Assembly (NCBI GenBank): GCA_965199715.1
Contig: OZ241322.1
Coordinates: 480,001 to 544,000, forward strand
From: Vicinamibacteria bacterium
Lineage (GTDB): Bacteria; Acidobacteriota; Vicinamibacteria; Marinacidobacterales; Marinacidobacteraceae
Direction: 5' to 3'
DNA length: 64,000 bases
Part shown: positions 29-10,540 of the stretch, piece after piece
How positions within the stretch are numbered: position 1 is the stretch's first letter
How the letters are laid out: every line of letters begins with the position of its first letter
Position numbers and translations under genes: made by a program
Notes under the pieces: model-generated
Database searches by the model: none
What the model was told of the DNA's origin: nothing
The model's input: only the letters and a program-made list of their open reading frames with translations

Positions 29-1285
29 GTGCGGACGCTGTGGACCTTCTACGTCGGCGAGGACACGGTCGAGGCCGAGGAGCTTCCGCCGCCCGGGGAC
101 AACTTCGAGATCGCCTTCCAGGGGGCCTTCGTCGCGCTCGAGGCGGTCTCCGCCCACCCCGAGCTCACCGGGGGGACGGTGCTCATCTCCTTCGCCTTCG
201 CTCCGTTCGAGCTGGCGCAGGGCGCCACCGGCGGACTTCCCGAGTCGCTGAACGACTTCGACGTGGGCGCCGGCCTCCTGATCGGCCTCGGGGGCCTGGG
301 GCTCGTGTTCGTCGCGCTTCAGGTGTTCGCGGTCTATGTCGGCGTGCGCCTCGCCCGGTCCATCACCCGCTCGGTAGAGGCGCTCAGCGACGGGACCCGC
401 ATGGTCCGCAGCGGCAACTTCGGCCACGCGCTCACGGTTCCCTCGCGCGACCAGCTCGGGGATCTGGCCCGGTCCTTCAACGTGATGACCGCGAAGATCC
501 GGGACGACATGGAGCGCCTCCGGCAAGCCGCCCACCTCGAGCAGGAGATGGACACCGCGCGCGACGCGCAGGCGCGCCTGCTCCCGCGCGACGGCGCGGT
601 GACGGTCCCGGGGTTCGAGGTCGCGGCGGTCTGCCGCCCCGCCGCCGCCGTGGGCGGGGACTACTACGACCTGATCCCGCTCGGGCCGAACCGTCTCGGC
701 GTGGTCATCGCCGACGTTTCCGGAACCGGCGCCCGCGCCGCGTTCACCATGGCGGAGCTGAAGGGACTCATCCTCGCTCTCAGCCGCGTGCACGAGTCGC
801 CCCGGAAGGTGCTCGTCGCGGCCAACCGCGCGCTGTACGAGACCCTCGACCGCCGAACCTTCATCACCATCACCTACGCGGTCTTCGACTCCGAAGCCGG
901 CTCCGTGACATTCGCCCGGGCGGGGCACAGCCCCCTGCTCCGGCTCCGTCGCGGGAACGGGGCGGCCGCCCGGTGCGAGCTGTCGGCCCCCCGGGGCCTT
1001 GGCCTCGCGCTGGACCCGGGGCCCATCTTCGAGCGCGTGCTCGAGGAGCGCACCGCCCCGCTCGCAGCCGGAGAAACGTGGGTGTTCTTTACCGACGGGG
1101 TTTCGGAGGCCATGAACGGCGACTCCGAGATGTTCGGCGAGGAACGCCTCGCCCGCCTTCTGGAAGACAGTTGGAGGCAGCCGCCCGAAGAAATGCAGCA
1201 GACCGTGGAGGACGCCGTGCTCGACTTTACCGGGGCCAAGACCCACAACGACGACCTGAGCATGGTCGTGGTCCGGGTGCTCTGA
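29..1285 (+). CDS. Membrane HAMP + SpoIIE/PP2C (RsbU-like) Ser/Thr phosphatase; probably 5'-truncated by the window edge
   Basis: TM helix, HAMP (RDQLGDLARSFNVM), PP2C motifs VGGDYYD, IADVSG, FTDGVSEA, HNDDLS. Confidence 0.9.
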   Translation: MRTLWTFYVGEDTVEAEELPPPGDNFEIAFQGAFVALEAVSAHPELTGGTVLISFAFAPFELAQGATGGLPESLNDFDVGAGLLIGLGGLGLVFVALQVFAVYVGVRLARSITRSVEALSDGTRMVRSGNFGHALTVPSRDQLGDLARSFNVMTAKIRDDMERLRQAAHLEQEMDTARDAQARLLPRDGAVTVPGFEVAAVCRPAAAVGGDYYDLIPLGPNRLGVVIADVSGTGARAAFTMAELKGLILALSRVHESPRKVLVAANRALYETLDRRTFITITYAVFDSEAGSVTFARAGHSPLLRLRRGNGAAARCELSAPRGLGLALDPGPIFERVLEERTAPLAAGETWVFFTDGVSEAMNGDSEMFGEERLARLLEDSWRQPPEEMQQTVEDAVLDFTGAKTHNDDLSMVVVRVL

Positions 1286-2787
1286 TGCGCCGACGACGCC
1301 GGACCCGGGCCGCGCCGCCGAAGGCGCGGCGCCCGCTCGCCTTCTTCCGGAGCCGCCTCGGCCACCGGTTCCGCAAGCTCGATCTCCTCGAACGGGCGCT
1401 GACCCACGGTTCCTACGCCCATGACCACGGCGTGGGGGACTACGAGCGGCTGGAGTTCGTCGGCGACGCCGCGCTCGGCCTCGCGGTGACCGAGATCTTC
1501 TACTTCGCCTGCCCCGACTGGACGCTGCATCGGCGCCAGGAGGCCAAGTCGGCGATCGTGAACAACGAGTCGCTCGCGGCCGCGGCGCGGACGCTCCAGC
1601 TTCCCGACGGATTGCGGGTCGGGGCCGGTCAGGGCGGCGAACAGGGGGCGCGTTCCTCGGACCGCATCCTCGCGAACGTCTTCGAGGCGGTGCTCGGGGC
1701 GGCGTGGCTGGACGGCGGCCTCGACGGGGTGCGCGGCGTCGTCCGGACCGCGTTCGACGACCGGTTCGAGTCCTTCGGTGCGGACCCCGACGCGGGTCCG
1801 GGCCGGCGCTCCCCGAGGCGCCTCTACTTCGCCGCGATCCGGATCGTGCGCCGCGTCCTCGGGCTCGCGACCCCGGTGGAGCGGGCGATGGGGCGCGCGT
1901 TCGGGGACCGGGAGCCGCTGCGCGCGGCGGAACACGCGAGCCCCCGCCGGTCGTGGCGGCGCCGGGGGCGACGGCCCCGCCGGCCCCGCGAGGAGCGCGG
2001 CGACGGCGGCGCGCAGCGGTTCCTCGGCCGCGACGTCCTGCACCTCGTGATCGCGGACGCGCTCCACGCGCGGTTCCCCGACTGGGACGAGGGACGCATG
2101 ACGCTCGCCCGGATGCGCCTCCTCGAACGCGACTTCCTCGTGCGGATCGGCGGCGCCTGGAACGTCGAGGCCGGGGAGTCCCGGGCGGCGGTCGTCGAGG
2201 GACTGCTCGGCGCGCTCTTGCTCGACGGCGGCCTCGCAGCGGCGAAGAAGGCGCTCGCCCCCGTCATGCGGCCCGCGCTCGACGATCTGGAGGATCCGAA
2301 CCTCGAGCTCCTCGACGCCAAGACGCTGCTCCAGAACCGCATCGCGAAGGCGGGCGGCGAGCCTCCGCGGTACCGGGAGGTGTCCCGTCCCGGCCGGGGC
2401 CACGCCGCGGTCGTGCTCCGGCTGGCGGACGGCAAGACCTTCCAGGGGACCGGCAGGGGCGTCAAGGACGCGGAGAAGGACGCCGCCGCCCAGGCGTTCC
2501 GGCGCCTCTACTCCGCCGCGCGCCCCGACAAGAAGGAACGCCCCTGCAAGCCGTCCGACGCAGCCCCGCGCTCCGAGAACCCCAAGGGCGCGCTCCAGGA
2601 GCTGGTGGCGAAGGAGCAGCGGGAGGTTCCGACCTACCGGGTGCTCGCCGAGGAAGGGCCCGAACACGACAAGACCTTCCACGTGGAGGTGCTCGTCGCC
2701 GGACGGGCGCTCGCCCGGGGCCGCGGGCCGAGCAAGCGGCGCGCCGAGGCCGAAGCCGCGGCGGCGGCCCTCGACGCGAGGCGCTGA
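1285..2787 (+). CDS. rnc: Ribonuclease III-family protein with two tandem RNase III domains (second degenerate) and two dsRBDs
   Basis: ATG at 1285 overlaps the upstream stop (TGATG); RALTHGS, ERLEFVGD, NVFEAVLGAAWLDGG; second copy QRFLGRDVL...VVEGLLGALLLDGG; dsRBDs DAKTLLQ...AEKDAA and NPKGALQE...GPEHDKTF...SKRRAEAEAA. Confidence 0.88.
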   Translation: MRRRRRTRAAPPKARRPLAFFRSRLGHRFRKLDLLERALTHGSYAHDHGVGDYERLEFVGDAALGLAVTEIFYFACPDWTLHRRQEAKSAIVNNESLAAAARTLQLPDGLRVGAGQGGEQGARSSDRILANVFEAVLGAAWLDGGLDGVRGVVRTAFDDRFESFGADPDAGPGRRSPRRLYFAAIRIVRRVLGLATPVERAMGRAFGDREPLRAAEHASPRRSWRRRGRRPRRPREERGDGGAQRFLGRDVLHLVIADALHARFPDWDEGRMTLARMRLLERDFLVRIGGAWNVEAGESRAAVVEGLLGALLLDGGLAAAKKALAPVMRPALDDLEDPNLELLDAKTLLQNRIAKAGGEPPRYREVSRPGRGHAAVVLRLADGKTFQGTGRGVKDAEKDAAAQAFRRLYSAARPDKKERPCKPSDAAPRSENPKGALQELVAKEQREVPTYRVLAEEGPEHDKTFHVEVLVAGRALARGRGPSKRRAEAEAAAAALDARR

Positions 2788-2836
2788 GGCCGCGCGCCGA
2801 GCCCTCTATACTCCCCGCCCGAACCGAACGAACGCC

Positions 2837-4045
2837 TTGGAATCCCTGAACTTCGAGCTGAACGAGGACCAGCGCGCCACCGAGGCGCTGGTCCGCGATT
2901 TCGCGTCGCGCGAGGTCGCCCCGCGCATCCGCGAGAACGACGCGGCCCGGCGCTTCGACCGGACCATCCTCGAGCGCATGGGCGCGCTCGGGATTCTCGG
3001 CCTCTCGATCCCCGAGCGGTACGGCGGCGCGGGGCTCGACTACGTCTGCCTCGGGCTCGCCTCCGAAGAGCTCGAATACGTGGACACCTCGCTCAGGGTC
3101 GTCATGTCGGTCCACGCCGGGCTCAACTCGCTGTCGCTGCTGACGTGGGGCGACGAGGAGCAGAAGGAGCGCTTCCTGAAGCCGCAGGCCGAAGGCCGGG
3201 CGATCGGGACCTACGGCCTCACCGAGCCCGACGCCGGGAGCGACGCCGTGGGCATCCGCTCGACGGCGGTGAAGGACGGGGACGGCTACGTCCTCAACGG
3301 GGAAAAGCACTGGATCTCGCTCGCCGAGATCGCCGACAACTTCCTCGTGATCGTCTGGACCGACGCCGACAAGCGCCGGAACCGGGACCACACCGGACTC
3401 TCCGCCTTCATCGTGGAGCGGTCCAGCGACGGCTTCGAATCGGGCGCCATGACCGGGAAGTGGGGCATCCGCGCCGGCAACACCGGCTGGTTCCGCATGC
3501 GCGACGTCCGGGTTCCGGAATCCTGCCGGCTGGGCGCCGAGGGCGAGGGGTTCCGGATCGCGATGTCCGCGCTGGACCAGGGCCGCTTCACCGTCGCCGC
3601 CGGAGCCACCGGGCTCATCCGCGCCTGCCGCGACGCGAGCGTCAAGTGGGCGCTCTCGCGGAAGTCCTTCGGCGAGGAGATCGCCCGGCACCAGCTCGTC
3701 AAGCAGATGATCGCCCACATGGAGCGCGACTACGAAGTCTCGCGGCTCCTGTGGCTGCGCGCCGGGGACCTCAAGAACCGCGGGAAGCGGGACACCCGGG
3801 AGACCTCGCTCGCCAAGTGGGTCGCCACGGTCGCGTCGGAACGCTCCGCCTCCGACGCGATCCAGATCCACGGCTGCTACGGATACTCGGACGAGTACCC
3901 GGTCGGCCGGTTCTGGCGCAACTCGAAGGGCGCGGTCATATACGAGGGCACCCGCGAGATCCACACGCTGGTGCAGGCCGACTACGCGCTCGGGTACCGG
4001 CGCGACCGGCCGGCGCGGGTCGCCCTGCCCCCGTTCGAGGGCTGA
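2837..4045 (+). CDS. Acyl-CoA dehydrogenase
   Basis: [35 protein letters not shown]. Confidence 0.95.
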
Positions 4046-5518: not shown

Positions 5519-5587
5519 CCGGTCGGGGCCGCTGGCGCCGGCCTTGCATTCCGCTAGGTCGTGCAGTCGTTTCCTGGAGGGAATCCA

Positions 5588-7558
5588 ATGCTCCGCCCCA
5601 ACGAGCCCGTCCCCATGCGATTTCGCTGGCTGTTCGCCGCGGTAGCGGCCCTGCTGGCCGTTCCCGCCGCCGGCGCCGCCCAGGATTCGACCCGGTCGTA
5701 CGCCTACGGCGCCCTGAGCGACGTCGAGGGAGACGTCTGGCTGCAGCGGGCCGACGACTTCGGCGCGAACGAGGCCGAGCCCAACAGCCCGTTCCTCCCG
5801 GGCGACCGGCTCTGGACCCGGGAGCCCGGGCAGGCGGAGGTGCGGTTCGCCGGCCGGGTGACCGCGTGGCTGCACGAGCGCACCAAGCTCGACTACGTGG
5901 AGGGCGACGAGCCGCACCGGCTGGGCTTCTGGACGGGGAGCCTCCTGCTCCGGGTCGGCGACGACGCTTCGGTCGTGGTCGAGAGCCCCGGAGGCTCGCT
6001 CGCTCCCCAAAGCGCCGGCCGGTTCCGCCTCGACGTGCTCGAGGAGGGACAGGGCGTCCGGTTCGTCGCCCTCGAGGGGATCGCGACGGTCCAGAGCGAC
6101 GCCGGCTCCGTCGTGCTGGCGACCGGCCAGCGGACCGTCTCCTCCGCCGACGGCGCGCCGAGCGCCCCGGAGAACATCGACGGAGTCGATCAGGACGCGC
6201 TGATGGAATGGGCGGACAGCCGCGACGCAAGCCGCGCCCTCAGCGAGAACGTCCCCTACGACGAGCTTCCGGACGAGGTCCAGGAGCACGTCCACGACCT
6301 GCAGGGCCACGGCCACTGGCGCCGCGACCCGCACCTCGGCTGGGCGTGGTACCCGACCGTCGCGGCGGGCTGGGCTCCCTACCACTACGGGCGCTGGGCC
6401 TACACCCCCTTCGGCCACACCTGGATCTCCTACGACCCGTGGGGTTGGGCGCCGTACCACTACGGACGCTGGGGCTACGGCTCCACCGGGTGGTACTGGC
6501 TCCCGGGCTCCCACTGGGGGCCGGCGTGGGTCTCGTGGGCGTGGGGGCCGGACTGGATCGGCTGGTCGCCGCTCGGCTACTACAACCGGCCGGTGTACGG
6601 GTTCCACGCGGTCCGGGGCGGGTTCTACGGCGGCGGCGCGCGGCCGGGGACGGTCGTCGGACGCGCCGTGGCGCGCGGCGAGGCCAACCGGCGCGCCCGC
6701 CCGCGCCACGGCTGGAGCTTCGCGGACCGGTCCGCCATGGGGCGGGCGGGCTCCCGGAACCGGCTCGACGTCTCGACCGCGCGAAACCTCCGGGACGCGC
6801 GCGTCTCGGGCCGGGGCGCGGTGCTCGACCGGAACCTCCGCGAGCGGGCCGTGGGCCGGACCGCGATCGCGACGTCCACGGCGTCGACCGTCCGCAACCT
6901 CTCGAACGCGCGGCGCGGCGCGATGGTCCGCGACCGGCGCGCCACCGCCGGCGCGCAGCGCCTCGCGGCCCCGGCGCGCAGCGCCCGCAGCCGGGCGACC
7001 GCGGGGCCCGCGCCCGGGACTGTCCCGTGGACTTCGGGCGCGGCGTCCCGAAGCGCTCCCCGTGCGGCGCCCCGCGCGACCGGAAACCGGCTGGGCGGAC
7101 GTCCCGGCGCCAGCCGCACGGCTCGCCCGCCGCGGCCGCGCGCGGCGCCGTCCGGCGGCGGCGCCCGCAGGCCCAGTTCGGTCCGGCCCAGCTCCCGCCC
7201 GAGCTCGGCGGCTCCCCGGTCCCGCCCATCCCGGCCCAGCTCCAGCCCGAGTTCGGCGGCCCCGCGCTCCCGCCCCTCCCGCCCGAGCTCGGCGGCCCCG
7301 CGCTCCCGCCCCTCCCGCCCGAGCTCGGCGGCCCCGCGCTCCCGCCCCTCCCGCCCGAGCTCGGCGGCTCCCCGGTCCCGCCCATCCCGGCCCAGCTCCA
7401 GCTCGCGCCCGAGTTCGGCGGCCCCGCGCTCCCGCCCTTCCCGCCCGAGTTCGGCGGCCCCGCGCTCCCGCCCTTCCCGCCCGAGCTCGGCGGCTCCCCG
7501 GTCCCGCCCATCCCGGCCCAGCTCCAGCTCGCGCCCCAGGTCCCGGCCGAACCGCTAG
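5588..7558 (+). CDS. Exported FecR-like + DUF6600-type protein with Ser/Arg/Pro repeat tail
   Basis: GGAGG RBS before ATG 5588; signal peptide; GDRLWT FecR-like start; W/Y/G-rich WAPYHYGRW repeats; low-complexity C-terminus. Confidence 0.75.
   Translation: MLRPNEPVPMRFRWLFAAVAALLAVPAAGAAQDSTRSYAYGALSDVEGDVWLQRADDFGANEAEPNSPFLPGDRLWTREPGQAEVRFAGRVTAWLHERTKLDYVEGDEPHRLGFWTGSLLLRVGDDASVVVESPGGSLAPQSAGRFRLDVLEEGQGVRFVALEGIATVQSDAGSVVLATGQRTVSSADGAPSAPENIDGVDQDALMEWADSRDASRALSENVPYDELPDEVQEHVHDLQGHGHWRRDPHLGWAWYPTVAAGWAPYHYGRWAYTPFGHTWISYDPWGWAPYHYGRWGYGSTGWYWLPGSHWGPAWVSWAWGPDWIGWSPLGYYNRPVYGFHAVRGGFYGGGARPGTVVGRAVARGEANRRARPRHGWSFADRSAMGRAGSRNRLDVSTARNLRDARVSGRGAVLDRNLRERAVGRTAIATSTASTVRNLSNARRGAMVRDRRATAGAQRLAAPARSARSRATAGPAPGTVPWTSGAASRSAPRAAPRATGNRLGGRPGASRTARPPRPRAAPSGGGARRPSSVRPSSRPSSAAPRSRPSRPSSSPSSAAPRSRPSRPSSAAPRSRPSRPSSAAPRSRPSRPSSAAPRSRPSRPSSSSRPSSAAPRSRPSRPSSAAPRSRPSRPSSAAPRSRPSRPSSSSRPRSRPNR
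7196..7536 (+). repeat. Coding tandem repeat, 36-bp unit, 8 copies (RPSSAAPRSRPS)
   Basis: Unit ccgagctcggcggccccgcgctcccgcccctcccgc and variants read directly. Confidence 0.9.
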
Positions 7559-7834: not shown

Positions 7835-10540
7835 ATGCCCAACCTGGCGACCGAACCCGCGACGACCACCGGACTCGAGGAGGTTCCCCGGCGCGTCCCC
7901 GGCTCGGGAGCGGGCGAGGAAGGCGGACTACGGTTCGAGCGCTTCTTCACGACCCCCGCAACCTCCCCGTTCGACACGGTCGAATGGGAGCGGCGCGACG
8001 CCGTGATCACCGACGAGCACGGCAACGAGATCTTCGCCCAGCGCGGCGTGGAGTTCCCGAAAGCGTGGTCGCTCATGGCCACCTCGATCGTGGCCTCCAA
8101 GTACTTCCACGGATCGCTGGAGAAGGGTGAGCGCGAGTCGAGCGTGCGCCAGCTCGTGGGCCGGGTCGCCCGCCAGATCGCCCGGTGGGGCCGCGACGGC
8201 GGCTACTTCGCCGACGAAGAGTCGGCGACGACCTTCGAGGACGAACTGACCTGGCTGCTCCTCCACCAGCGGGCCGCGTTCAACTCCCCGGTCTGGTTCA
8301 ACTGCGGCGTCGAGGAAAGCCCGCAGTGCTCGGCGTGCTTCATCAACTCCGTCGAGGACACGATGGACTCCATCCTGACGCTCGCGCACACCGAGGGGAT
8401 GCTGTTCAAGTGGGGTTCGGGGACGGGCTCCAACCTCTCGGCGATCCGAAGCTCGCGGGAGTCGCTCTCGGGCGGCGGCATCGCGAGCGGCCCGGTGTCC
8501 TTCATGAAGGGCTTCGACTCGTTCGCCGGAGTGATCCGCAGCGGCGGCAAGACCCGCCGCGCCGCCAAGATGGTGATCCTGAACGTGGACCACCCGGACG
8601 TCCTCGACTTCATTGACTGCAAGTCGCGCGAGGAGCAGAAGGCCTGGGCGCTCATCGAGGCGGGCTACGACGGCTCCCTGAACGGCGCGGCCTACGCCTC
8701 CATCCAGTACCAGAACGCGAACCACAGCGTGCGCGTCAGCGACGCCTTCATGGAGGCCTGCGCCGCCGACGGCGCGTGGGAGACGCGGTCGATCACGAGC
8801 GGGGAGGTCATGGACCGGCTACGCGCCCGCGACGTGCTCCGCCGCATCGCCGAATCCACCCACGTGTGCGGGGATCCGGGGATGCAGTTCGACGACACGA
8901 TCAACCGCTGGCACACCTCGCCCAACAGCGGCCGCATCAACAGCTCGAACCCCTGCTCGGAGTACATGTACCTGGACGACTCCGCGTGCAATCTCGCGTC
9001 GCTGAACCTGATGCAGTTCCTCGACGACGTCGGGGAATTCGATACGCCAGCGTTCGAGAGCGCCGTGAACGTCCTGATCACCGGGATGGAGATCATCGTC
9101 GGGAACGCGAAGTACCCGACCGAGCGGATCCAGGCGAACTCGCACGCCTTCCGGCCGCTCGGACTCGGCTACGCGAACCTCGGCGCGCTCCTGATGCACT
9201 ACGGACTGCCCTACGACAGCGAGTCGGGGCGATCGCTCGCCGCGTCCATCACCTCGCTCATGACCGGCGCCGCGTACGGCCAGTCCGCGCGGATCGCGAC
9301 CGCAGTGGGCGTCTTCGACGGCTACCCCGAGAACCGCGAACCGTTCGGCGAGGTCATGCGGATGCACCGCAGCGCGGCGCACGACGTCCCCGAAGCCGGC
9401 GTGCCGCCGGACCTCCACCGCCGTAGCCGGGACGTATGGACCGAAACCATCGAGCTCGGCGACGCGGCCGGCTACCGGAACGGACAGGCCTCGGTCCTCG
9501 CGCCCACCGGCACCATCGGGCTGATGATGGACTGCGACACCACCGGCGTGGAGCCGGACCTCGCGCTCGTCAAGCACAAGAAGCTCATCGGCGGCGGCGT
9601 GATGCGCATCGTCAACCACACGGTCCCCGCCGCCCTCGCCCGCCTCGGCTACGGCCCGGCCGCCGCCGACGCGATCTGCCGCCACGTGGACGAACACGGG
9701 CACATCGAGGGGGCGCCCGGCCTCCGTCCGGACCACCTCGAGGTCTTCGACTGCGCCCTCAAGCCGACCGGCGGCTCCCGCTACATCCACCACATGGGCC
9801 ACGTGAAGATGATGGCCGCGGTCCAGCCGTTCCTCTCCGGCGCCATATCCAAGACGGTGAACATGCCGGAGGACAGCACCGTGGAGGAGATCGAGCGCGC
9901 CTACGACGCCGCCTGGAAGCTCGGCGTGAAGGCCATCGCCATCTACCGCGACGGCAGCAAGCGGGCGCAGCCGCTGAACCAGGGCAAGGAAGAGGCCGCT
10001 CCGACGACGGCGGCGGCTTTCGAGGGCGAAATCCTGCCCCCGGAGCGCGACGCCGTCATCCACAAATTCGACATCGGCGGGCACAAGGGATACCTCACCG
10101 TCGGCCTCCGGCCCGACGGCACGCCCTGCGAGATCTTCCTGCGCATGGCGAAGGAGGGCGCCTTCGTTTCCGGCATCATGGATTCGTTCGCCCGCTCGAT
10201 CTCGTACAACCTGCAGTACGGCGTCCCGCTGCGCGTTCTGGTGGAGAAGTTCTCCCACACCCGGTTCGAGCCCTCGGGATACACCGGCAACCCGGAGATC
10301 CCCCACGCGGACTCGATCACCGACTACATCTTCCGCTGGCTCGAGCTGCGCTTCCTCCAGGACGAGGACGAGGCGCCCGAGCCCGTCCGGGCGAAGCGGC
10401 CCCCCGGACGGGAGCGGATCCCCCAGCCGTCGGCCGTGTTCGCCGACGCTCCGCCGTGCTCGACCTGCGGCGCTCTCATGGTCCGCAGCGGCACCTGCTT
10501 CAAGTGCCTGAACTGCGGCGCGACTTCGGGCTGCTCCTGA
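7835..10540 (+). CDS. nrdJ: Vitamin B12-dependent (class II) ribonucleotide reductase with C-terminal TSCPD/zinc-ribbon domain
   Basis: FNSPVWFN, QCSACFI, GGKTRRAAKM, NPCSE, CNLASLN, APTGTI, GAISKT, terminal CSTC...CLNCGATSGCS. Confidence 0.95.
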   Translation: MPNLATEPATTTGLEEVPRRVPGSGAGEEGGLRFERFFTTPATSPFDTVEWERRDAVITDEHGNEIFAQRGVEFPKAWSLMATSIVASKYFHGSLEKGERESSVRQLVGRVARQIARWGRDGGYFADEESATTFEDELTWLLLHQRAAFNSPVWFNCGVEESPQCSACFINSVEDTMDSILTLAHTEGMLFKWGSGTGSNLSAIRSSRESLSGGGIASGPVSFMKGFDSFAGVIRSGGKTRRAAKMVILNVDHPDVLDFIDCKSREEQKAWALIEAGYDGSLNGAAYASIQYQNANHSVRVSDAFMEACAADGAWETRSITSGEVMDRLRARDVLRRIAESTHVCGDPGMQFDDTINRWHTSPNSGRINSSNPCSEYMYLDDSACNLASLNLMQFLDDVGEFDTPAFESAVNVLITGMEIIVGNAKYPTERIQANSHAFRPLGLGYANLGALLMHYGLPYDSESGRSLAASITSLMTGAAYGQSARIATAVGVFDGYPENREPFGEVMRMHRSAAHDVPEAGVPPDLHRRSRDVWTETIELGDAAGYRNGQASVLAPTGTIGLMMDCDTTGVEPDLALVKHKKLIGGGVMRIVNHTVPAALARLGYGPAAADAICRHVDEHGHIEGAPGLRPDHLEVFDCALKPTGGSRYIHHMGHVKMMAAVQPFLSGAISKTVNMPEDSTVEEIERAYDAAWKLGVKAIAIYRDGSKRAQPLNQGKEEAAPTTAAAFEGEILPPERDAVIHKFDIGGHKGYLTVGLRPDGTPCEIFLRMAKEGAFVSGIMDSFARSISYNLQYGVPLRVLVEKFSHTRFEPSGYTGNPEIPHADSITDYIFRWLELRFLQDEDEAPEPVRAKRPPGRERIPQPSAVFADAPPCSTCGALMVRSGTCFKCLNCGATSGCS

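Follow-up and report, generated by a model that had tools for sequence, protein, structure and literature searches.

The window analyzed here, a 64,000-nucleotide stretch from the genome of a Vicinamibacteria bacterium (GenBank assembly GCA_965199715.1, contig OZ241322.1, positions 480,001 to 544,000), encodes an RNase III that carries two RNase III domains (RIIIDs; here A and B) and two double-stranded RNA-binding domains (dsRBDs) in a single chain. In its lineage this tandem protein is inherited vertically and is the only RNase III, and canonical sister lineages stand beside it. Judged from its residues, domain B is catalytically dead, and domain A is plausibly competent for catalysis. The evidence is best explained if the tandem protein is the housekeeping RNase III of a sponge-associated Acidobacteriota family in the class Vicinamibacteria. 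We further propose, with moderate confidence, that A and B of one chain form an intramolecular pseudo-dimer with one live site, which would cut one strand of double-stranded RNA (dsRNA) per binding event.

Domain architecture and catalytic residues

The architecture RIII-RIII-dsRBD-dsRBD had been read from the DNA letters in an original prediction. It was borne out by Pfam, by profile comparison, and by matches to PDB sequences, and it is the same in the whole family. The open reading frame (ORF) translates into 500 codons with no internal stops, and the scan with Pfam models recovered both expected RNase III matches and both dsrm matches, that to domain B being partial. Domain A is matched by PF14622 (87.6 bits) and PF00636 (65.5 bits) over residues 33-155, domain B by PF00636 (33.4 bits; cut-off, 27) at profile positions 5-53, and the two dsRBDs by dsrm (26.9 bits at about residues 358-408 and 54.9 bits at residues 433-496). 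The same scan of the 500-residue protein returned no significant family beyond RIIID and dsrm and, specifically, no PAZ, helicase, platform, ZnF, or PUF domain. The whole protein scores 243.3 bits against TIGR02191, the NCBIfam equivalog for ribonuclease III (cut-off, 166.25). Public records label members of the family (P0018, P0048, and P0052) "hypothetical protein [Acidobacteria bacterium]," though the window protein passes the TIGR02191 cut-off. A feature-based comparison starting from P0018 brought up canonical RNase III clusters only.

To describe domain B we cut it from an alignment of 42 family proteins, hand-picked down the hit list from the 70 full-length homologs reported below, and compared its profile with that of 66 canonical bacterial RIIIDs using hhalign. 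The two matched with a probability of 99.7% (E = 3.5e-25), and the 131 aligned columns reach from the N-terminal helix through to the C-terminal one. Because the match runs from the first helix to the last, domain B is a complete RNase III domain and not a fragment. It differs from canonical domains by a deletion of about 12 residues and, upstream of this, by the Arg-rich insertion that the original prediction had placed in B, which we confirmed at residues 219-241, directly before the signature helix; 11 of its 23 residues are Arg or Lys. The protein as a whole is strongly basic, with an isoelectric point (pI) of 10.7.

The motifs quoted in the original prediction all lie at the coordinates given there, including ILANVFEA (residues 128-135) and PDWTLHRRQEA (residues 77-87) in domain A and PDWDEGRMTLA (residues 265-275) and RAAVVEG (residues 300-306) in domain B. 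The best PDB-sequence match of domain B in a phmmer search is E. coli RNase III (7r97_A; E = 1.5e-4), and the resulting alignment equates R245 with E41, R249 with D45, E269 with position 65, A302 with D114, and E305 with E117. For domain A, aligning A and B with three canonical sister enzymes equates E54 with E38, E57 with E41, D61 with D45, L81 with E65, Q85 with S69, N131 with D114, and E134 with E117. The tetrad E41/D45/D114/E117 is therefore represented in domain A by E57, D61, N131, and E134 (Asn standing for D114, the other three unchanged) and in domain B by Arg, Arg, Ala, and Glu. A deep mutational scan of the E. coli enzyme reports that E41, D45, and E117 tolerate no substitution, that D114 is tolerant (fitness of 0.99 for D114G and 0.97 for D114R), and that most substitutions of E65 are deleterious (PMC10037077). 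E117 is a ligand of both metals, sharing MgA with E41 and MgB with D45, and D114 alone makes no direct contact with Mg2+ (PMC9291653). Taken together, these metal-ligand and tolerance data indicate from sequence that domain B, in which Arg stands for both E41 and D45 and Ala for D114, is catalytically dead and that domain A is plausibly active.

Homologs sharing the tandem architecture were readily found: a homology search of a public protein collection yielded 73 family proteins, of which 70 are full-length (480-674 amino acids) and 3 are fragments, and we counted residues in a MAFFT alignment of all of them. In domain B, R245, R249, F246, G248, and E305 are present in 73/73 proteins and E269 and T273 in 72/73, while position 302 is Ala, Gly, Pro, or Ser and never acidic; the predicted dead second site is thus a property of the whole family. 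In domain A, E57 is conserved in 71/71 proteins, D61, N131, E134, and Q85 are each conserved in 72/72, and E54 is nearly invariant. The signature-helix Phe and Gly are likewise retained in domain A. Position 81, the equivalent of E65, is acidic in none of 72 proteins (Gly in 52, Ala in 9, Arg in 5, Ser in 4, and Leu in 2).

Domain B is not decaying. Among the 42 aligned relatives, mean pairwise identity is 0.78 for domain A, 0.71 for the core of domain B, 0.67 for dsRBD1, and 0.79 for dsRBD2, and it falls to 0.47 for the A-B linker, 0.41 for the Arg-rich insert, and 0.26 for the inter-dsRBD linker. The identity of the B core against 0.26-0.47 for the linkers and insert indicates that B is under purifying selection. 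In the same relatives the insert is 17-72 residues long and the inter-dsRBD linker 19-137, and the longest of these linkers contain a third dsRBD (P0006).

The loss of the EG motif from domain A and its retention in domain B, which the original prediction had read as complementary losses, likewise hold family-wide. The pattern is real, but the argument drawn from it is weaker than implied, because E65 is a non-catalytic surface charge. In E. coli RNase III, E38 and E65 are described as negative surface charges at the ends of the catalytic valley whose removal stabilizes the complex with RNA, and E65 is described as non-catalytic (PMC9291653). Domain A keeps the E38 equivalent and loses that of E65, and domain B does the reverse; counted over both domains, the valley would hold about 6 acidic and 2 basic side chains versus 12 acidic ones in the canonical dimer. 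In Aquifex RNase III, E37 and E64 may belong to different subunits, a point that carries no weight in the present argument.

The Asn in place of E. coli D114 had been raised as a caveat to the activity of domain A. The residue is indeed there (N131), but the concern is resolved. We took the canonical rnc from 12 genomes of two sister families in the same order, and in 12/12 the NES[LM]EFLGD signature is intact and the EG motif is present, as is ANA[LF]EAV, which places Asn at the D114 position. A rough motif parse of 127 canonical-length proteins from a representative-library search gave, for the 92 in which the D114 position could be parsed (35 of 127 could not), Asp in 65, Asn in 13, Gly in 6, Ser in 4, Ala in 2, and His and Arg in 1 each; the E65 position was Glu in 103 of 107 parsed proteins. 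Asn in all 12 sister enzymes and in 13 of 92 parsed proteins marks this residue as ancestral in the order, common elsewhere, and no sign of inactivation, in keeping with the tolerant, non-liganding nature of D114 in E. coli. The near-constancy of Glu at the E65 position, by the same comparison, makes its loss from domain A a real derived feature.

These data also bear on whether the protein is an enzyme at all. Both sites might be dead, leaving a dsRNA-binding protein that acts as an RNA chaperone or binding factor, like plant RNC1, which is drawn with inactive RIIIDs (PMC8708148). Such a protein could explain why Asp is missing from the D114 position of domain A, along with the equivalents of E65 and S69, why the pI is so high, and why the tandem rnc diverges more between relatives (47-63% identity) than both flanking genes (64-81% and 80-88%). 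It would have no reason, however, to preserve one intact acidic cluster over the whole history of the family, with E57, D61, and E134 invariant and E54 nearly so. Asn is moreover common to canonical enzymes that are the sole rnc of their genomes, and the D114G and D114R substitutions are near-neutral in E. coli (PMC10037077). We consider a non-catalytic role very improbable.

Distribution and origin of the tandem gene

The genome from which the window is drawn comprises 2.66 Mb in 2 contigs and is 93% complete, and its only matches to PF00636 and PF14622 fall within the tandem ORF. A separate canonical rnc, whose presence the original prediction had suggested checking, was found neither here nor in any of the 28 family genomes: each has exactly two PF00636 matches, both within one ORF, and none elsewhere (28/28). 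We then searched 55 genomes of the order using the segment comprising the linker and domain B as the query. The tandem form is present in 28/28 genomes of the window's own family (f1). In sister family f2, where the count includes one unpublished genome (G033), there were strong matches in 0/8 genomes, and a single weak match (E = 8.8e-7) falls on a canonical 255-residue rnc; in sister family f3, the tandem form was found in 0/19 genomes. A profile search of 1.84 billion representative proteins returned only three representatives of this tandem family, which points to a narrow lineage. The stretch covered by the window is present in sponge-metagenome runs, and the family is sponge-associated.

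The sister families instead encode a canonical rnc of about 255 residues at the equivalent position, downstream of a gene for a HAMP-SpoIIE phosphatase. In the tandem family, the order of HAMP-SpoIIE phosphatase, rnc, and acyl-CoA dehydrogenase genes is kept at 11/11 loci examined, and a phosphatase homolog (45-51% identity) lies directly upstream of the canonical rnc at 5/5 sister loci examined (L036-L040). This shared upstream neighbor indicates that the tandem gene is the positional ortholog of canonical rnc and arose in place. In the window, the ATG of rnc shares bases with the TGA of the phosphatase gene (TGATG). The order-wide pairing of the two genes may indicate co-expression or regulation of RNase III.

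Internal duplication of a canonical rnc best explains how the tandem gene arose. In a tblastn comparison, domain B and dsRBD1 together (residues 198-429) align in order along an entire canonical rnc, and the alignment takes in the short junction of EDPKT type between the two domains; domain A and dsRBD2 are the more conservative copies. Either of two routes may have led to the present domain order: a whole copy inserted into the RIIID-dsRBD junction, or an RIIID and then a dsRBD duplicated in succession. A domain tree built by a quick method (63 rows, with 20 of the 42 aligned tandem proteins) recovers A and B as one clade each, and the groupings inside the two are similar. The branch leading to B is long and its attachment unreliable, so that B may be a copy of A or may have come from elsewhere.

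The gene comes from a metagenome-assembled genome, in which high G+C leaves many frames open, so that a misassembly, a sequencing-error fusion of adjacent genes, or a decaying pseudogene had to be considered. Against such an artifact, 28/28 family genomes, several of them single-contig, carry this one ORF uninterrupted by stops within the matches, the public collection holds 70 full-length proteins, and domain B retains its mean identity of 0.71. Contigs from a second study (X3 and X4; 12.5 kb), which possibly derive from the same DNA source, span window positions 1000-3000 unbroken and in one piece with 0 differences. The misassembly that could have undone the original prediction is thus not what we found, and conservation across the family is the stronger argument here, more so than contig coverage; an artifact is effectively refuted. 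An apparent joint at 2662/2735 was set aside, as it rests on 20- to 22-letter matches of unrelated contigs.

Proposed domain pairing and mode of cleavage

One chain of the tandem protein has the contents of a canonical homodimer, with two RIIIDs and two dsRBDs, one acidic cluster being intact and the other replaced by Arg. The signature-helix Phe is the ball of the ball-and-socket interface between RIIIDs. Three considerations lead us to infer that A pairs with B: the interface is formed by the signature helix, whose Phe and Gly are present in both domains; intramolecular pairing is favored after an internal duplication; and this arrangement is reported for Drosha and Dicer in the same account that describes the RIIID dimer interface as a "ball-and-socket" (PMC3867540). 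The A:B packing and the cleavage of a single strand are alike drawn from sequence logic and precedent.

In the mechanism that we propose, A and B would pack together via their kept signature helices to form one catalytic valley. Half-site A (E57, D61, and E134, with N131 in the second shell as in the canonical sister enzymes) would bind Mg2+ and hydrolyze one strand by a two-metal mechanism. Half-site B, with R245 and R249 in place of the metal ligands and the Arg-rich loop adjacent to them, would grip the opposite strand and leave it uncut. dsRBD1 would be seated on B via its short canonical junction, and dsRBD2, on a flexible tether able to reach the A side, would stand in for the dsRBD of A. 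A double cut would then require a second binding event in the opposite orientation, and because the protein is asymmetric, the substrate could dictate which strand is cut.

The domains might instead pair between chains. In a chain-swapped homodimer, A:A' would form a normal two-site valley making staggered double cuts, B:B' would form a dead, Arg-lined valley, and B with dsRBD1 would be only an extra dsRNA-binding platform. All positions at which the E. coli enzyme is intolerant of change are intact in domain A, whose interface-helix Phe and Gly make A:A' pairing chemically possible; being colinear with a whole canonical rnc, B with dsRBD1 could act as an inserted module. We nevertheless regard this arrangement as unlikely. 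After duplication, effective concentration greatly favors pairing within a chain, which is how Drosha and Dicer are reported to be arranged (PMC3867540), and one chain already has the full complement of RIIIDs and dsRBDs of a complete canonical dimer. Domain A of a homodimer would stand about 270 residues from dsRBD2, the short RIIID-dsRBD junction being retained by B only, and the homodimer offers no explanation for the strict conservation of E269 and T273 in a domain that is dead.

The single ribosomal RNA (rRNA) operon of this genome lies outside the window, on the minus strand of contig C1 (1264003-1269107). The 16S rRNA is flanked by a stem of about 27 bp, some 130-150 nt from its ends, and the 23S rRNA by a stem of about 45 bp adjoining its ends; both are nearly perfect. 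These stems are the expected substrates of the tandem enzyme, and they do not discriminate a one-site from a two-site enzyme. As ordinary long stems, which canonical enzymes cut on both strands around 16S and 23S rRNA, they are in keeping with the homodimer.

Several further points weigh against an intramolecular pseudo-dimer that cuts one strand. The same sequence facts fit the chain-swapped pairing (A:A' plus B:B'), and the 35-residue A-B linker allows either arrangement. A single-site enzyme can still make a double cut by rebinding, so that "nickase" may misdescribe the outcome in the cell. Domain A is without the equivalents of E65 and S69 (RBM3), which are highly conserved in canonical enzymes, and its activity may consequently be lower than assumed. 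For this genome alone, the part missing from a 93%-complete assembly might conceivably contain a second RNase III.

Should the tandem protein be monomeric and cut a single strand, it would amount to a compact, naturally occurring dsRNA nickase, both a useful tool and a clean system in which to study strand choice by RNase III. One would then have to ask how these bacteria process their rRNA precursors. More broadly, and as a tentative claim that we hold to be possible rather than probable, the family would represent a natural single-chain, single-site RNase III that has replaced the homodimer family-wide, an independent bacterial re-invention of the Drosha/Dicer pseudo-dimer and of the live/dead pairing of kinetoplastids. 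Its dead half-site, with two invariant Arg residues where the Mg2+ ligands were and an Arg-rich loop, would be a metal-independent clamp on the strand to be left uncut, and the enzyme would be a strand-selective nickase oriented by two unequal dsRBDs.

Gene layout, related proteins, and comparison with known systems

Features of the tandem gene and its upstream neighbor are collected in Table 1.

Table 1. Positions of the tandem RNase III gene, its parts, and the upstream gene in the window
Feature	Position	Strand	Details
HAMP-SpoIIE (PP2C) phosphatase gene, upstream neighbor	29..1285	+	Stop overlaps rnc start
Whole gene, tandem RNase III	1285..2787	+	500 amino acids plus stop; the genome's only RNase III locus
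Arg-rich N-terminal tail	1285..1341	+	Residues 1-19; 9 Arg/Lys, no Asp/Glu
RNase III domain A	1342..1764	+	Residues 20-160; E54, E57, D61, N131, E134; Leu at the E. coli E65 position
Domain A signature ERLEFVGD	1444..1467	+	Residues 54-61
A-B linker	1765..1869	+	Residues 161-195; 33-41 residues long across 42 relatives
RNase III domain B	1870..2289	+	Residues 196-335; full-length RIIID, catalytically dead by sequence
Arg-rich insert directly ahead of the domain B signature helix	1939..2007	+	Residues 219-241
Degenerate domain B signature GAQRFLGR	2008..2031	+	Residues 242-249; R245 at the E41 position, R249 at D45; motif Phe and Gly kept
Domain B PDWDEGRMTLAR	2077..2112	+	Keeps E269-G270 (E. 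coli E65-G66) and T273 (E. coli S69)
dsRBD1	2302..2520	+	Residues 340-412; diverged copy; short canonical-type junction to B; Q350 (alpha-1 Gln) kept; without GPxH loop
Flexible inter-dsRBD linker	2521..2577	+	Residues 413-431
dsRBD2	2578..2778	+	Residues 432-498; canonical, with LQE, GPEH, and KRRAE motifs

Contigs from two metatranscriptomic libraries tile most of the gene, and one piece (1752-2176) crosses the A-B linker. As DNA is possible in RNA libraries, this is only a hint of transcription, and we attach no weight to the gaps in these contigs (about 2177-2205 in X6 and several bins in X7). A scan for promoters and terminators gave nothing above shuffled expectation. Elsewhere in the window, an ORF at 5561-7558 (+) encodes a protein with DUF6600 and a weak FecR match; within it, positions 7187-7536 form an array of 36/72/126/162-bp tandem repeats, at about 82% G+C, which encodes a repetitive tail rich in Pro, Ser, and Arg. 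The gene at 7835-10540 (+) encodes a ribonucleotide reductase of class II (B12-dependent) whose C-terminal domain is TSCPD.

Other proteins with more than one RIIID were encountered in the searches. A second small metagenomic family (P0123, P0128, P0153, P0275-P0279, and P0310) has the architecture RIII-RIII-dsRBD in 435-444 residues. The signature of its domain A is intact or near-intact, and that of its domain B reads ARLKFLGH, GRLAFLGD, or GRLAFVGA, with Lys in place of E117 in 2/3 sequences read. This family had no match in 401 sampled Acidobacteriota genomes or in a scan of genome contigs with P0153. Its live-first, dead-second logic, as read from these signatures, suggests a recurrent evolutionary route. 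The representative library also holds P0121 (480 amino acids), P0159 (544 amino acids), and P0125 (605 amino acids); two of the three are RIII-dsRBD-RIII-dsRBD proteins with both signatures intact and one has three RIIIDs, and they may be of bacterial or eukaryotic origin or come from chimeric contigs.

Bacterial RNase III is described as a class with one RIIID and one dsRBD per chain that acts as a homodimer, and tandem RIIIDs are treated as a eukaryotic hallmark (PMC8708148 and PMC5303251). No account of a tandem-RIIID enzyme from bacteria came up in the literature searched, which left out most subscription journals, so that absence from print is unproven. Domain A and dsRBD2 are ordinary parts of a canonical Rnc, with T. 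maritima and M. tuberculosis RNase III as their best PDB-sequence matches. The tandem protein also resembles canonical Rnc in its ERLEFVGD signature, which is of the ExLEFLGD type, in passing the TIGR02191 cut-off, in its gene position, and in being the only RNase III of its genome. It departs from canonical Rnc in having two RIIIDs and two dsRBDs per chain rather than one of each, in a second site that is dead by Arg substitution, and in a domain A without the E65 and S69 equivalents (RBM3). Mini-III, in contrast, consists of an RIIID only, whereas the tandem protein carries two dsrm domains and its genome has no other PF14622 locus.

To our knowledge, RNC1 and RTL3 are the other known tandem-RIIID proteins besides Drosha and Dicer. 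These plant proteins resemble the tandem protein in having two RIIIDs per chain with dsRBD-type partners; AtRTL3 has a second RNase III motif (PMC2275086), and RNC1 is described as a chloroplast splicing factor (PMC11241334) whose RIIIDs are inactive (PMC8708148). Both are eukaryotic, however, and the RIIIDs of RNC1 are drawn as inactive, whereas one domain of the bacterial protein keeps its catalytic acids.

A parallel to a single live site comes from engineered heterodimers of E. coli RNase III that join a wild-type subunit to an inactive one, in which one functional site is enough for activity and produces nicks in dsRNA (PMC3867540, citing Meng & Nicholson 2008 and Conrad et al. 2002). Those are laboratory constructs with a single point mutation, whereas here the asymmetry is natural and family-fixed, with Arg substitutions and remodeled RNA-binding motifs. 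In kinetoplastids, the live RIIID of KREN1-3 is proposed to pair with the degenerate one of KREPB4/5 and to cut one strand per binding event (PMC3867540). The tandem protein has the same pattern of live and dead RIIIDs, as far as sequence alone can tell. Theirs are separate polypeptides with ZnF and PUF domains in the editosome, unlike the one fused chain with dsRBDs encoded here by a bacterial housekeeping gene.

Drosha and Dicer share with the tandem protein the order of two RIIIDs in one polypeptide followed by one or more dsRBDs, and both A and B have Drosha chains among their better matches in PDB sequences. Their tandem RIIIDs form intramolecular pseudo-dimers (PMC3867540) in which both sites are catalytic, each cutting one strand, unlike domain B here. 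Enzymes of the Drosha/Dicer type also have accessory parts (PAZ, helicase, and platform domains, or a P-rich/RS region and a DGCR8 partner), and Pfam finds in the bacterial protein no PAZ, helicase, platform, or other extra domain. The tandem protein has a bacterial origin, in place, and is not an ortholog of Drosha or Dicer. Drosha and Dicer are assumed to have originated through a step from homodimer to fused pseudo-dimer, and the tandem protein would give a present-day instance of it, in a lineage that also shows the following stage, in which one site has been silenced and rebuilt.

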